Shown here one piece after another: positions 6,010-32,499 of a stretch of 32,650 nucleotides of DNA. Origin of the DNA: a bacterium (lineage in GTDB: Bacteria > UBA6262 > WVXT01); the NCBI GenBank assembly GCA_046759165.1, contig JBHIBS010000019.1, positions 1-32,650 of the forward strand, written 5' to 3'. How positions within the stretch are numbered: position 1 is the first letter of the stretch; the number at the start of each line of letters is the position of its first letter. The notes below the pieces were generated by a model. That model did no database searches, was not told the origin of the DNA, and saw only the letters and a program-made list of their open reading frames with translations. The position numbers were made by a program, and so were the translations under genes.

Positions 6010-6166
6010 GATTTAGGGACTGGCGGGCAGAAATTATCCGTTGGTTTTTCTTTTTTGCCTCTGAAAGAACCTCTTCCCAGGTAAGTCGCTGGGCTAAAAG
6101 ATAACTTGAACTTCCAATAATCACAAATAAAAAGATAACTCCTTCATCAAATATTTGAACAGTCAA
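6010..6166 (-). pseudogene. 5' remnant of a second TolC-like gene
   Basis: A hydrophobic leader then LTWEEVLSEAKKKNQRIISARQSL, matching LVWEDVLAEAKEKNPRIISARQSV of the TolC at 4231-4293; homology then stops. Confidence 0.75.
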
Positions 6167-6224
6167 AAATTATCTTGCAAAAGTCGAGTAATTATCGTTG
6201 TCCGCAATCCTTCAGGCCTGGGGC

Positions 6225-6394
6225 GCTCTAGCGTCTTTTGCCCCTCGCTAAAATGCCCCGATTTATTCATCGGGACAGCGACCCTTCGCTCTTCCTCGGA
6301 TGACCTCGGCGTTCGTATCCGGGGCACTCACCGTCTCGCGCCCGTCGCTATCTTGGAGCTCCTTATTCGTCGCTCCAGCGACCCTTCAAATCCC
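6225..6394 (-). repeat. Structured element 3' of tRNA-Glu, related to the tRNA-Gln-linked repeats
   Basis: Contains CTCTTCCTCGGATGACCTCGGCG (6289-6311, identical at 27471 and 27610), GACCCTTCGCT (also at 27321) and TTCAAATCCC (6385-6394), an inverted copy of the tRNA T-arm. Confidence 0.7.
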
Positions 6395-6412
6395 TTTCTT
6401 ATGCATAATTCG

Positions 6413-6488
6413 TAGCGCCAACGGGATTTGAACCCGTGATCTCTGCCTTGAGAGGGCAGCGTCCTAAACCAGACTAGACGATGGCGCC
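6413..6488 (-). tRNA. tRNA-Glu (anticodon CTC), CCA not encoded
   Basis: GGCGCCA...TGGCGCT acceptor stem, anticodon arm CTGCC-CTCTCAA-GGCAG, T-arm GGGTTCAAATCCC. Confidence 0.96.
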
Positions 6489-7592: not shown

Positions 7593-7593
7593 T

Positions 7594-7783
7594 GAGATTA
7601 AAAGATAGTTTGTGAATAGTTTTTGGAATTCCAGCTAAAAAACGAAGACGACTTATTCTCCTTCAAGCAAAAATTTGTTCGACCCCGATTTATCGGGGGA
7701 GTTTATTTTTGCTCCCTGCAGAGTCCGAAGTTTTTCTGGCGTGAAGAAATTCCTCAGTGATGAACAAACTATCTTTTGATTTC
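7594..7783 (+). ncRNA. Structured ~180-nt repeat element, full copy 1 (candidate ncRNA or non-autonomous mobile element)
   Basis: Terminal IR AAAAGATAGTTTGT/ACAAACTATCTTTT; nested stems GGAATT/AATTCC, AAAAAC/GTTTTT, GAC/GTC, AGCAAAAAT/ATTTTTGCT; cap hairpin CCCCGATTTATCGGGG. Colinear with the copies at 19321 and 21418. Confidence 0.7.
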
Positions 7784-7798
7784 TATTTTTTTCTTTTT

Positions 7799-19191: not shown

Positions 19192-19320
19192 AACTTTAAC
19201 CTCCTTGACTTGTCCTCCCCGCTTAGTATAAACGTGGCGACCTTTCCGATATTTCTTCGGCTCAACCATCTTTATAATGCCATGCGAAGCTTACGCCTCA
19301 CTCCTCCTTATTCATGTTAC

Positions 19321-19502
19321 ATTCAAAAGATAGTCTGTGAAAAGCTTTTGGAATTTTAGGCAAAAAACAAGGACGAATTCTTCTCTTCTAAGCAAATCAC
19401 TGTTTGACGAGCGAAGCGAGGAGTTTTGATTTGCGCCATGCTGAGTCCGAAGTTTTTTGCCGTAAAGAAATTCCTAAGTAATGAACAGACTATCTTTTGA
19501 AT
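19321..19502 (+). ncRNA. Structured ~180-nt repeat element, full copy 2
   Basis: Perfect 18-bp terminal IR ATTCAAAAGATAGTCTGT; stems GGAATTT/AAATTCC, GGCAAAAAAC/GTTTTTTGCC, GGAC/GTCC, GCAAATCA/TGATTTGC; cap GAGCGAAGCGAG. Confidence 0.7.
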
Positions 19503-19513
19503 CTAACCAAGAA

Positions 19514-21417: not shown

Positions 21418-21599
21418 AAGAAAAGTTGATTTTGAAGAGCATTGGAATTTTAGCGAGAAACGAGGCTAACAATAACACTTCCAAACAGAATTTTGGTTGA
21501 GCCCCGATTTATCGGGGCGAGTTTAATTCTGTGCCCTGCAGAAGCCGAAGTTTCCGGGCGGTAAAAAATTCCTCACCGATCGAAAAATCAACTTTTCTT
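21418..21599 (+). ncRNA. Structured ~180-nt repeat element, full copy 3 (most divergent)
   Basis: Perfect 16-bp terminal IR AAGAAAAGTTGATTTT; stems GGAATTTT/AAAATTCC, GAAAC/GTTTC, GGCT/AGCC, ACAGAATT/AATTCTGT; cap GCCCCGATTTATCGGGGC. Confidence 0.7.
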
Positions 21600-21771
21600 A
21601 TTTATTACCATCTCCCGGTGGCACCTCCGCGTTCGATTCTTTAGGAATAAAATCCTCTCCCACTGCGCTCCCGTAAAGGGAAATAGACTTGAGGTTATCT
21701 CCGTGCAATCCGATCATTGCCTGGTTGAAAGGCATTACAACTTTCCTAACACGGTTATTTAACTTTTCCAA
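21598..21771 (-). pseudogene. Truncated nucleotidyltransferase-domain gene (5' fragment, 57 aa, not in the ORF track)
   Basis: Manual translation LEKLNNRVRKVVMPFNQAMIGLHGDNLKSISLYGSAVGEDFIPKESNAEVPPGDGNK*. It has a Pol-beta-type LYGS motif and ends before the catalytic DxD region. Confidence 0.65.
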
Positions 21772-26817: not shown

Positions 26818-27252
26818 CTACCAACTGGATATTGGAGTTCCATCAAGGCCGAGATGTGTGCAATCAATGCAAATTCCCCCTGTTGCAGAATTATAGCACC
26901 ATCCACCGCTATCAGTGATATTAGGGCCTAGGACTTGATTTGTTCGTGAATGATCCTTAAGGCTCAAATATGGAATCTCATTTACATAATCAGGATTCAG
27001 GGAATTGGAAAGTGGGCTAGGAGGCCATGCTCCGTCATTAGTTCCATAATAGGTCATAATTGCCATACGCAAAATACCCAGATTCCCCTTTGCGGTATTC
27101 TCGTTTCCTTGGCGAATTAAATTGCCAGCTTTGGCGATAAGAATAACTGCAAGTAGCCCAATAACTGCTACAGAAATCATCAGTTCGGTCAAAGTGAACC
27201 CTTTTAAATTTGACACGCTACATCCTATTTTATTCAATTTTCTCAAAAGCAT
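26818..27252 (-). CDS. Type IV pilin / T2SS pseudopilin-like protein
   Basis: Prepilin cleavage/methylation motif KG-FTLTELMISVAVIGLLAVI. Confidence 0.88.
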   Translation of the reverse strand: MLLRKLNKIGCSVSNLKGFTLTELMISVAVIGLLAVILIAKAGNLIRQGNENTAKGNLGILRMAIMTYYGTNDGAWPPSPLSNSLNPDYVNEIPYLSLKDHSRTNQVLGPNITDSGGWCYNSATGGICIDCTHLGLDGTPISSW

Positions 27253-27320
27253 TACCCACTTACAATCTTATACTTCCTATCAGACAAGAAAAGTCAAAAG
27301 AAGAAAAGCTCCCCTCCAGT

Positions 27321-27684
27321 GACCCTTCGCTTCTCCTCCCATTAGGTCGGGGCTCACGCCCTTCGAATCCTTCCGCAGGTAACCTAGACTGCCGGGGGAG
27401 AATTCGCTTTTTCCCCGTCCCATCTACTCCCACGGCTCAAAAGCCAGCCAACTCGCTTCCGCGCTCCACACTCTTCCTCGGATGACCTCGGCGCTCGTTG
27501 GCTTCGAATCCCTGCAGGTAACCTAGACTGCAGGGGGAGGATTCGCTTTTTCCCCGTCCCATCTACTCCCACGGCTCAAAAGCCGGCCAACTCGCTTCCG
27601 CGCTCCACACTCTTCCTCGGATGACCTCGGCGCTCGTTGGCTTCGAATCCCTGCAGGTAACCTAGACTGCCGGGGGAGGATTCG
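27321..27684 (-). repeat. tRNA-Gln-linked tandem repeats: two 139-bp units plus a divergent distal unit
   Basis: GCAGGTAACCTAGACTGC occurs at 27375, 27514 and 27653 (period 139). The tRNA 3' 18-mer is repeated at 27389-27406 and 27528-27545 with one mismatch each. Confidence 0.93.
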
Positions 27685-27737
27685 AACCTCCACGCCAAGA
27701 TCCAGAGTCTTGTGTCCTACCATTAGACAACCCGGCA
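27667..27737 (-). tRNA. tRNA-Gln (anticodon CTG), CCA not encoded
   Basis: TGCCGGG...CCCGGCA acceptor stem, anticodon arm CAAGA-CTCTGGA-TCTTG, T-arm GGAGGTTCGAATCCTCC. Confidence 0.96.
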
Positions 27738-27741
27738 ATTT

Positions 27742-28068
27742 TTATCCTTTTTGCTGTTCTTTTTTCTCTTGTTTTTCTTCCTTCTTTTCTTTCTTTTCTT
27801 TCTCTCCCTTTTTTACCTCGTCAACATAGTTTAGCTGGAGAGTGGCGAGAGTCTCACTAATTAACTTTTCTTCCTCTTTAACCAGATTTCCTTTAGTCCT
27901 CTCTTTTAACATTTCCATCATATCGATTGTTACTTTTGCCTGCTCTAAATTTCTCTCAATCTTGCCTGTCAAGGGATTAGTAACTTTACCCATCTGCTGC
28001 ATTGCTGCCTGGGAAAGGGAAAGAACAAGGCTCATAAAAAGCATGTTCGATTTTCGTTCTTCAGCCAT
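27742..28068 (-). CDS. DUF1844-like protein
   Basis: F.SLV.SL...A...MG...NP.TG....NL..AK..ID...ML...TKGNL...E...L..LQLNYV. Confidence 0.8.
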   Translation of the reverse strand: MAEERKSNMLFMSLVLSLSQAAMQQMGKVTNPLTGKIERNLEQAKVTIDMMEMLKERTKGNLVKEEEKLISETLATLQLNYVDEVKKGEKEKKEKKEEKQEKKEQQKG

Positions 28069-32359: not shown

Positions 32360-32473
32360 GTCAAAAACTCTGGACTCCTTGCGAAAGCAAGGTGAAATAC
32401 CTCTCGCCCTTTCGCGTAGACTCCAAACTTTTTGGCATTAAGAAATTCCTCAGCGATAAACAAATTATCTTTT
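32360..32473 (+). repeat. Chimeric copy: right arm of the ~180-nt element enclosing the CCTTGCGAAAGCAAGG module
   Basis: GTCAAAAA...TTTTTGGC stem, then ATTAAGAAATTCCTCAGCGATAAACAAATTATCTTTT matching the right arm of copy 1. Confidence 0.75.
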
Positions 32474-32499
32474 AACGTCTCAGAAGCTATATCCCAAAT

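Follow-up and report, generated by a model that had tools for sequence, protein, structure and literature searches.

We analysed a 32,650-nt stretch of bacterial DNA (contig JBHIBS010000019.1 of assembly GCA_046759165.1, lineage UBA6262; hereafter the window) in which two tRNA genes, tRNA-Glu(CUC) and tRNA-Gln(CUG), are each followed by an antisense copy of their own T-arm. These antisense copies are the 5' ends of members of a lineage-specific family of small, gene-less modules at tRNA 3' ends, here called A units. We give about an even chance to the reading that the A unit is a non-autonomous, mobile or formerly mobile insertion module that targets tRNA 3' ends. The observations reported below concern its anatomy, its tracking of the host tRNA, the covariation of its structure, its restricted distribution and its presence/absence differences among related genomes. 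tRNA genes are classic landing sites of mobile DNA and, to our knowledge, the known users of these genes carry their own integrase and have one fixed specificity; here, one tiny module without genes lies behind about 20 tRNAs, fitted to each host both as a mirror image and as a direct copy. In the literature searched, no description of tRNA-tail-matched trailer modules was found in those portions of the sources that were accessible.

Read in the sense of the tRNA, the A unit is GC- and purine-rich, lies directly 3' of the tRNA gene and consists of a spacer, an anti-tail, a conserved three-helix core and a direct copy of the host tRNA end, with a modal length of 138 nt. In the anti-tail, the T-loop and 2-5 further nt are present as their reverse complement, accompanied by a few nucleotides that can pair with the acceptor 3' end; the direct tail copy begins at T-loop position 56/57 and extends as far as the 3' end of the tRNA. 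The offset of the tail copy is constant, at 119-123 nt from the tRNA end (10 loci, 6 genomes and 5 host tRNAs). Metagenome contigs were also scanned by the core motif, which yielded at least 137 motif matches at at least 122 loci; the count used here comprises the 82 motif matches located no more than 90 nt downstream of a tRNA and leaves out 55 others (second array units, composites with a second repeat, module B, that is described below, and contig ends). All metagenome figures given in this text hold among the matches listed. An exact 14-nt tail copy was present in 66 of these 82 tRNA-adjacent units, and the unit period was 136-194 nt, with a median of 140. The direct repeat spans 14-47 nt or more and mostly terminates at the tRNA 3' end, the longer repeats being second units of arrays; the commonest tail-copy length is 17-22 nt, up to the tRNA 3' end and with CCA included where it is encoded. 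The left extension of the direct repeat is 0, 1 or 2 nt in 28, 36 and 2 of 66 loci, respectively.

The genome from which the window comes (1.885 Mb in 165 contigs, 40 tRNAs, 92% complete; its contigs are given below as C numbers) contains seven tail copies outside tRNAs that each follow the 3' end of an A core. Its remaining extra-tRNA copies are a short repeat at tRNA-Gly(CCC), one unexplained Ile-like match on C62 and cross-matches between two similar Gly tRNAs. At the tRNA-Gly(CCC) repeat (C85:143-250), a 21-nt direct copy of the tRNA's own 3' end follows after 14 nt, with no A unit between. Two units, on C22 (Asn-like) and C61, lie beside decayed tRNAs and still have an anti-tail that matches the tail copy; the C61 tail is that of tRNA-Leu(CAG), which is on another contig. 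The steady partner of the anti-T-loop is the unit's own tail copy, and the two form a terminal inverted repeat, or closing helix. The anti-T-loop matches the adjacent tRNA because the tail copy duplicates the end of that tRNA.

The tRNA-Gln(CUG) gene (27665-27738, minus strand, like the other features of the two loci unless stated; ARAGORN; Rfam RF00005, 61.3 bits), the second host in the window, has its T-loop TTCGAATCC at 27678-27686. Its trailer consists of 2.6 tandem units with a 139-nt period, measured between a point inside the T-loop and its next copy. Unit 1 (27526-27664, 139 nt) comprises a spacer, the anti-T-loop (27641-27650), the core, which in tRNA sense holds the reverse complement of a 23-mer (27610-27632), and the tail copy GAATCCTCCCCCTGCAG (27528-27544). 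Unit 2 (27387-27525, 139 nt), 98% identical to unit 1, has its anti-T-loop at 27502-27511, the 23-mer at 27471-27493 and the tail copy GAATTCTCCCCCGGCAG at 27389-27405. The tail copy corresponds to the last 17 nt of the tRNA, from GAATCC in the T-loop onward. A partial unit 3 (27296-27386; nhmmer 27296-27376) retains the spacer, the anti-T-loop (27361-27370) and the 5' half of the core, followed by a truncated start of module B, GGGTCACTGG; it represents a different A subfamily, with 90% identity over 83 nt to a unit resident in a relative, G005 (relatives are denoted by G numbers). The anti-T-loop GGATTCGAAG, complementary to the Gln T-loop, is found three times behind this tRNA.

The first host, tRNA-Glu(CUC) (6412-6488; ARAGORN; RF00005, 65.1 bits; T-loop segment TTCAAATCCC at 6423-6432), is followed by a decayed A unit that is split by two module B insertions and has lost its tail copy. 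The spacer between the tRNA and the anti-T-loop (6395-6411, delimited from the sequence) contains a small palindrome, TTATGCATAA, and is identical behind the orthologous tRNA-Glu of relative G006. The anti-T-loop GGGATTTGAA (6385-6394), the 5' end of the decayed unit, is the exact reverse complement of TTCAAATCCC, which covers the host T-loop plus 3 nt at the start of the T-stem 3' strand. A first, REP-like copy of module B (6319-6384; blastn) is nested immediately after the terminal GAAG of the anti-T-loop. It is followed by a 33-nt A-core remnant (6284-6316; nhmmer 6283-6317) that holds the P2 hairpin and the purine motif GAGGAAGAG and contains the 23-mer (6289-6311 on the plus strand). A second copy of module B, a variant with an GTCCCGAT/ATCGGGG stem (6217-6284), is placed after the A-core GCGAAG. 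At the orthologous tRNA-Glu of G006, the unit is complete: B is nested at the identical position, and the tail copy includes the encoded CCA.

The antisense T-arm copies that the first-pass annotation of this DNA had described behind both tRNAs are exact at 6385-6394 and 27641-27650. The 23-mer said to be shared by the two loci is indeed exact at both, but it occurs three times in the window (6289, 27471 and 27610) rather than twice; it gave 0 matches in 100 shuffles. The second shared element, GACCCTTCGCT (6280-6290, with a second copy at 27321), was also found at both loci, where it is the A/B junction, with B following the A-core GCGAAG. Nor is the 23-mer common away from tRNAs: five of its seven matches in the genome (with no more than 3 mismatches) are in tRNA-adjacent arrays, and the other two are on C22, beside a decayed tRNA-Asn-like 3' end, and on C7, with a tail-like end and no tRNA nearby. 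At the Rfam gathering threshold, the window contained tRNAs only and no other RNA family. A coding role of the units was rejected, as the copies differ by 1- and 2-nt gaps and paired compensatory changes and have no common open reading frame (ORF); the plus-strand ORFs at 6155-6415 and 27210-27485 were not analysed in detail in this check.

The correspondence between anti-T-loop and host T-loop that had been noticed at these two loci extends well beyond them. An exact reverse complement of the tRNA's own T-loop 9-mer was found 14-61 nt downstream of 7 of the 40 tRNAs of the genome, with four different 9-mers: TTCGAATCT (Ser-TGA), TTCAAGTCC (Leu-CAA and Leu-GAG), TTCAAATCC (Glu-CTC) and TTCGAATCC (Gln-CTG, Ser-CGA and Ser-GGA). 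A BLAST search with one unit gave matches in 9 of 41 genomes, namely this genome and all eight others of the same taxonomic family (8/8), and in none of the remaining 32; A units were absent from the three genomes of the phylum that lie outside the family (3/3). A pattern with two free T-loop positions had 33 matches in 9 of the 12 genomes of the phylum. The 26 matches judged to be tRNA-linked from their 3' ends agree with the host at both free positions in every case (26/26) and at position 9 in 25, the single exception being the Ser-CGA of G001, which has a Ser-TGA-type trailer; agreement was found in 2 of the 7 non-tRNA matches. A different pattern, CGCCGAN{7,10}GAGGARRAGC, was discarded as too unspecific across genome contigs, where it gave 120 single matches, mostly from unrelated and largely GC-rich taxa.

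In the metagenomes, 72 of the 82 tRNA-adjacent units fit the host T-loop at 9 of 9 positions; a single mismatch is present in 8, and three mismatches are seen in 2 (Gln-TTG). The hosts span at least 20 anticodons and at least 12 T-loop 9-mers. When only distinct combinations of host, T-loop and anti-T-loop are counted, 21 of 29 are perfect (permutation mean 3.3, maximum 10 in 10,000). Chance does not account for this fit, and the outcome is the opposite of the general lack of agreement between anti-T-arms and adjacent tRNAs at other loci that the first-pass annotation had named as a result that would contradict it. Where one tRNA species has differing T-loops across contigs, the anti-T-loop fits each time for Glu-CTC, Leu-GAG, Ser-CGA, Ser-GCT and Ser-TGA; for Gly-GCC, two of three T-loop variants have a fitting anti-T-loop.

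Compensatory changes support the core helices. In a nearly gap-free alignment of 18 units, drawn from 7 genomes, RNAalifold predicts three helices that make up a 5' domain: P1, which has an inner extension, P2 and P3. Double changes that keep the pairing occur at 9 of 14 pairs, such as CG/GC/AU in P1 and GC/CG in P2. The fraction of paired cells in this alignment is 94.8%, compared with 75.8 +/- 1.9 after shuffling (0/500 shuffles reach it) and 31-41% for slid partners. A covariance model built from the 18-unit alignment retrieved 125 units in 100 metagenome loci; among the 115 distinct units, 90.2% of cells are paired vs 75.5 +/- 0.7, a fraction that leans towards the model because the metagenome alignment was fitted to it. 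Wobble pairs on the tRNA-sense strand number 11 G-U vs 1 A-C in the family set and 35 vs 19 in the large metagenome set, a mild bias. In minimum-energy folds, a terminal helix of the spacer plus anti-tail with the tail copy closes 5 of 6 single units; the fold energy of 4 of the 6 is no better than that of shuffles (z -0.2 to +1.1).

These folds bear on the proposal, made in the first-pass annotation, of a pre-tRNA hairpin that sequesters the T-arm. By such maturation control, the trailer would pair with its own T-loop and acceptor 3' strand and so delay or gate folding and processing. The full 9-12 nt complementarity does exist with the tRNA itself only, because the TTC of the T-loop is not in the tail copy, and the fold of the Glu locus of the window joins the anti-T-loop to the T-loop. 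This locus, degenerate and tail-less, is the only one at which a fold contains that pairing. Complete units pair the anti-T-loop with their own tail copy, and the minimum-energy fold of tRNA-Gln with unit 1 leaves the helices of the acceptor and the T-arm undisturbed. The proposal is therefore poorly supported, and we consider it very improbable: the pairing of the anti-tail persists beside dead tRNAs, terminator-like hairpins can intervene (loci L274 and L285), the trailer is present at a minority of tRNAs (7/40), with the same tRNA lacking it in close relatives, and the GAA that extends the pairing doubles as the invariant start of the core (GAAG).

Repeats of the same layout, rtT, follow the E. 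coli tyrT and tyrV genes. In E. coli K-12, tyrV is succeeded by three units of 178 nt. Each terminates in AATCCTTCCCCCACCACCA, which copies the 19-nt tail from within the T-loop onward (offsets 159, 337 and 515). The small RNA RttR, which we take to be Rfam family RF00391, is annotated at 1287066-1287236, and its 3' end coincides exactly with that of the first tail copy. An anti-tail, GGGGAAGGAT, complementary to the tail, is likewise present in the E. coli unit, whose minimum-energy fold closes via that pairing. A units thus resemble rtT in forming tandem units directly 3' of a tRNA gene, in ending with a direct copy of the tRNA terminus (the last ~19 nt in E. coli) begun inside the T-loop, and in having an internal anti-tail whose pairing with the tail copy closes the GC-rich unit of several hairpins. 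They differ in that E. coli has one host tRNA and A units have at least 20, in that the E. coli anti-tail complements the region of the T-stem 3' strand and that of A units the T-loop, and in the distance of the anti-tail from the tRNA (~67 nt in E. coli vs 14-61 nt); the E. coli unit, unlike the A unit, overlaps the tpr ORF. Despite the shared layout, the two kinds of repeat have no detectable similarity in sequence, and an Rfam scan of the Gln locus (27250-27760) gave no rtT match at E values up to 10. The mode of action of rtT is termed unknown in a preprint (bioRxiv 10.1101/2024.07.17.603846).

The E. coli parallels, including the exact coincidence of the RttR terminus with the first tail copy and the anti-tail that closes the fold, would be expected if A units were rtT-like trailer RNAs as well. 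The unit would then be transcribed together with the tRNA and released, through cleavage at every tail copy by the enzymes that mature tRNA 3' ends, as a putative stable, structured RNA of ~125-140 nt. Such an RNA would have a role in the cell, perhaps as a sponge or in stress or stringent-response signalling; its tail copy would mark it for processing and protect it, and its anti-tail would close it. This is a serious possibility, which we place well short of an even chance; it does not exclude a mobile origin. A promoter/terminator scan of the window found nothing between the tRNAs and the units, which fits co-transcription and is weak evidence either way, but terminator-like hairpins do separate the tRNA from the anti-tail at L274 and L285. 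Likewise, the covarying helices, the family-set wobble pairs that favour the tRNA-sense strand and a conservation of the units equal to that of their coding flanks speak for an RNA, whereas the fold energies of most units, being no better than those of shuffles (4/6), do not. Units are also often truncated or split by B, the Glu locus of the window included, orthologous tRNAs of close relatives differ in the presence of a unit, and a cellular function would leave host-specific tails at 20 or more tRNA species unexplained.

Returning to the insertion module, we infer mobility, a recombination mechanism and a single-stranded hairpin as the site in the following form. A unit would enter a tRNA gene at the T-loop/3' segment by recombining over that identical segment; the tRNA would be regenerated and the displaced tail left on the far side, in the way that integrative elements use tRNA genes. 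Tandem arrays would arise via repeated entry or unequal crossing-over, and what is recognised is probably the hairpin into which tail and anti-tail fold in single-stranded DNA. The other suggestion of the first-pass annotation, that the inverted T-arm pair is a DNA recognition site for a tRNA-targeting element, is closer to the evidence than its hairpin model with respect to the tRNA-bracketed insertion, the 20 or more tRNA species colonised and the differing occupancy of orthologous sites.

Several loci can be read in this light. At L206, the second tail runs directly into a native spacer and tRNA-Tyr, so the unit lies inside a tRNA operon, and at L285 different terminator-like hairpins follow the first and the second tails. 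The outgroup genome G009 has a syntenic Arg-Ser-Ser tRNA cluster without a unit. For tRNA-Asp, G005 has a unit and G001 only a stub, G000 and G008 lack a unit, and in G003 and G004 the tRNA is followed by a Y1-transposase gene. Behind tRNA-Glu(CUC), a full unit is found in G006, a decayed one in the window and none in G004 and G005. Flanking genes of the members of the taxonomic family are 80-89% identical to those of the window, yet the unit content varies. These presence/absence and flank patterns fit an element that enters at the T-loop/3' segment with its own tail copy, and the Gln array, with two near-identical units and a third of another subfamily, is consistent with serial entries.

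A number of points weigh against mobility. Domain searches of the genome found no recombinase linked to the units, and neither an excised or circular form nor a true empty-site allele came to light; the 'empty' Asp and Glu sites may have arisen by deletion between direct repeats. A trans-acting enzyme would need to serve about 20 different tRNA tails, and the joint gain of a new host's tail and anti-tail is left without explanation. The core subtype is mostly constant at orthologous loci across genera (for Gln, GCCAAC in the four genomes fully readable there, G000, G008, G002 and G001; for Leu, GGGCGC in three), which implies that most copies are vertically inherited and that recent movement is rare. 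Between G000 and G008, the units are ~87-88% identical and the flanking genes ~86-89%, and with unit identity at the level of the flanks, selection on the units fits as well as mobility does. Finally, the wobble bias is clear in the family set and weak in the large set, and cannot separate RNA from single-stranded DNA.

Tyrosine-integrase elements use tRNA genes as attB sites, with a T-loop sublocation; a segment of the tRNA is repeated and the tRNA is regenerated. As with these integrative elements, the A unit is an insert bracketed by a T-loop-to-3'-end direct repeat, with the tRNA regenerated, and accretes in tandem at the same site. Unlike them, its 138 nt carry neither an integrase nor any other gene, one core serves about 20 tRNA tails, and an inverted copy of the target is part of the unit. 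The units might instead be scars of larger integrative elements, the tail copies being the old attR sites of islands that tyrosine integrases had placed in tRNA genes and that were later deleted, and the core an att-arm remnant. A direct repeat from the T-loop to the tRNA 3' end is the classical att signature of integrases, integrase gene fragments adjoin tRNA-Met and tRNA-Thr in this genome, and on C22 an AbiE-type islet is enclosed by tRNA-Asn and A-plus-tail remnants at distances of 2.9 and 6.4 kb from that tRNA. We nevertheless hold this origin to be decidedly improbable, given a length that stays at ~138 nt over 5 hosts and 6 genomes and dozens of metagenome loci, an internal structure that is intact and covarying, the occurrence of tandem arrays, and no integrase remnant within or next to the units examined.

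Recombination sites made of folded single strands are known from integrons (attC) and CTX phage (attP). If recombination occurs as inferred, the A unit would resemble these sites, being an imperfect hairpin with two helical segments and an asymmetric bulge whose arms stay complementary while the sequence varies by copy, and with arrays at one attachment point; it is unlike them in that one arm is fixed by the tRNA gene, and no integron integrase has been shown. Similarities also exist with REP/BIME elements, which go with RAYT transposases, and with miniature inverted-repeat elements, in that all are small, GC-rich, structured intergenic repeats with compensatory changes. Further parallels are the mosaic nesting with a second family (B) and two Y1-transposase genes in the genome, and the terminal inverted repeats (anti-tail and tail) are shared with miniature inverted-repeat elements. 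The A units differ from all these elements in that their terminal repeats are host-derived and vary by locus, that no short target duplication of fixed length flanks them, and that they occur almost exclusively at tRNA 3' ends.

A more specific version of insertion, which we consider unlikely, makes the anti-T-loop a guide. The gene-less ~138-nt element would find its target by pairing with the T-loop-coding strand and would be inserted by a host or trans-acting enzyme, rebuilding the tRNA end that it displaces. Single changes in the guide would retarget the element to other tRNAs, which would explain why at least 20 tRNA species, with at least 12 T-loop variants among them, have matching units. 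Such a guide would resemble the guide sequences of IS200/IS605 elements or the bridge RNAs of IS110 elements, and the rtT repeats of E. coli would be a fossil of the same process.

If the units are mobile, they would exemplify targeting by structure or by base pairing, directed at the sequence that is best conserved among all tRNA genes; if they are expressed, the small RNAs linked to tRNAs would gain a large new family. In both cases, they provide dozens of comparative examples for the tyrT/rtT repeats of E. coli. For annotation, it should be noted that A units break assemblies and yield pseudo-fragments of tRNA ends.

As for enzymes encoded in the genome that contains the window, PF00589 (Phage_integrase) gave two full-length and three fragmentary matches, all away from the units, and there are two Y1_Tnp genes and two IS110-type genes; no TnpB domain match was found. 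No autonomous transposon with A-unit ends was seen in searches of this genome for the Y1_Tnp, Phage_integrase, RVT_1, IS110 and TnpB domains. A retroelement origin was rejected: there was no RVT_1 match in this genome (92% complete), and tail copies in the CCA-less hosts inspected show no systematic gain of CCA. A link to IS110 bridge RNAs was also set aside, as one IS110-type gene lies ~250 nt downstream of tRNA-Pro(GGG) with no A-like sequence or tail copy there. The tyrosine-integrase gene fragments near tRNA-Met and tRNA-Thr are located just upstream of these genes (C58:4535-4810 and C14:28652-28831). The stretch downstream of tRNA-Asn (C22:13876-20310) contains an AbiEi-type antitoxin gene, a DUF4062 gene and an A 3' half with an Asn-like tail, followed further on by 3.3 kb of housekeeping-like genes and a full A unit, also with an Asn-like tail.

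Module B is a dispersed structured repeat of ~66-90 nt, with at least 33 copies in the same genome (blastn; for example C27:14421, C25:4827 and C2:49587), which nests in A units after GAAG. Its first hairpin shows compensatory variation (GGAGC/GCTCC, GTTCC/GGAAC, GTCGC/GCGAC) around the constant loop GACGAATAAGGAG. Many copies are at contig ends, and several are just upstream of a Shine-Dalgarno sequence and start codon. Y1 (IS200/RAYT-like) transposase genes lie directly behind tRNAs, namely behind tRNA-Asp in G003 (L064) and G004 (L062) and, in the genome of the window, beside tRNA-His (C4:49828-50160) and on C40. The Y1 genes of G003 and G004 are preceded by GGGACAGCGACC, the reverse complement of an arm of the module B hairpin and not of A; judging from this sequence relationship, module B may be the REP family of the Y1 transposases.

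Other repeats were noticed near these modules. The motif TGATTCACA(N2-4)GG, seen on C76, C54 and C22 (13780) and in the Ser and Asp trailers of relatives, occurs just after Ser and Asp tRNAs and just before the 5' ends of tRNA-Asn and tRNA-Val, as well as before ribosome-binding sites that adjoin other repeats; it may signal processing or mark the end of a repeat. A third repeat, CCTCTCCCC(N3-5)GGGGAGAGGA(N)AAGGTGAGGGG, is found beside or within A units in several relatives (Leu-Gly spacers L039, L041 and L044; L010/L020). At L015 (G006:C84, 1300-1800, minus strand), the 5' part of a tRNA-Trp, up to the T-stem, is fused to a B/A chimera and a degenerate Trp tail, and an intact tRNA-Trp lies ~50 nt past the recognisable tail remnant; from its sequence, this arrangement looks like a tRNA copy split at its T-loop. 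L036 (G002:C23:12100-12800) contains tandem tRNA-Leu(GAG)-like 3' parts, the second from the anticodon stem on, with an anti-T-loop and B/A remnants on the second part only. The window also contains an AT-rich repeat family, unrelated to the tRNA modules, with inverted arms ~150 nt apart, at 7593-7784, 19316-19507, 21518-21603 and 32429-32480 (direct repeats D2, D3, D8 and D10; inverted pairs I3 and I14).

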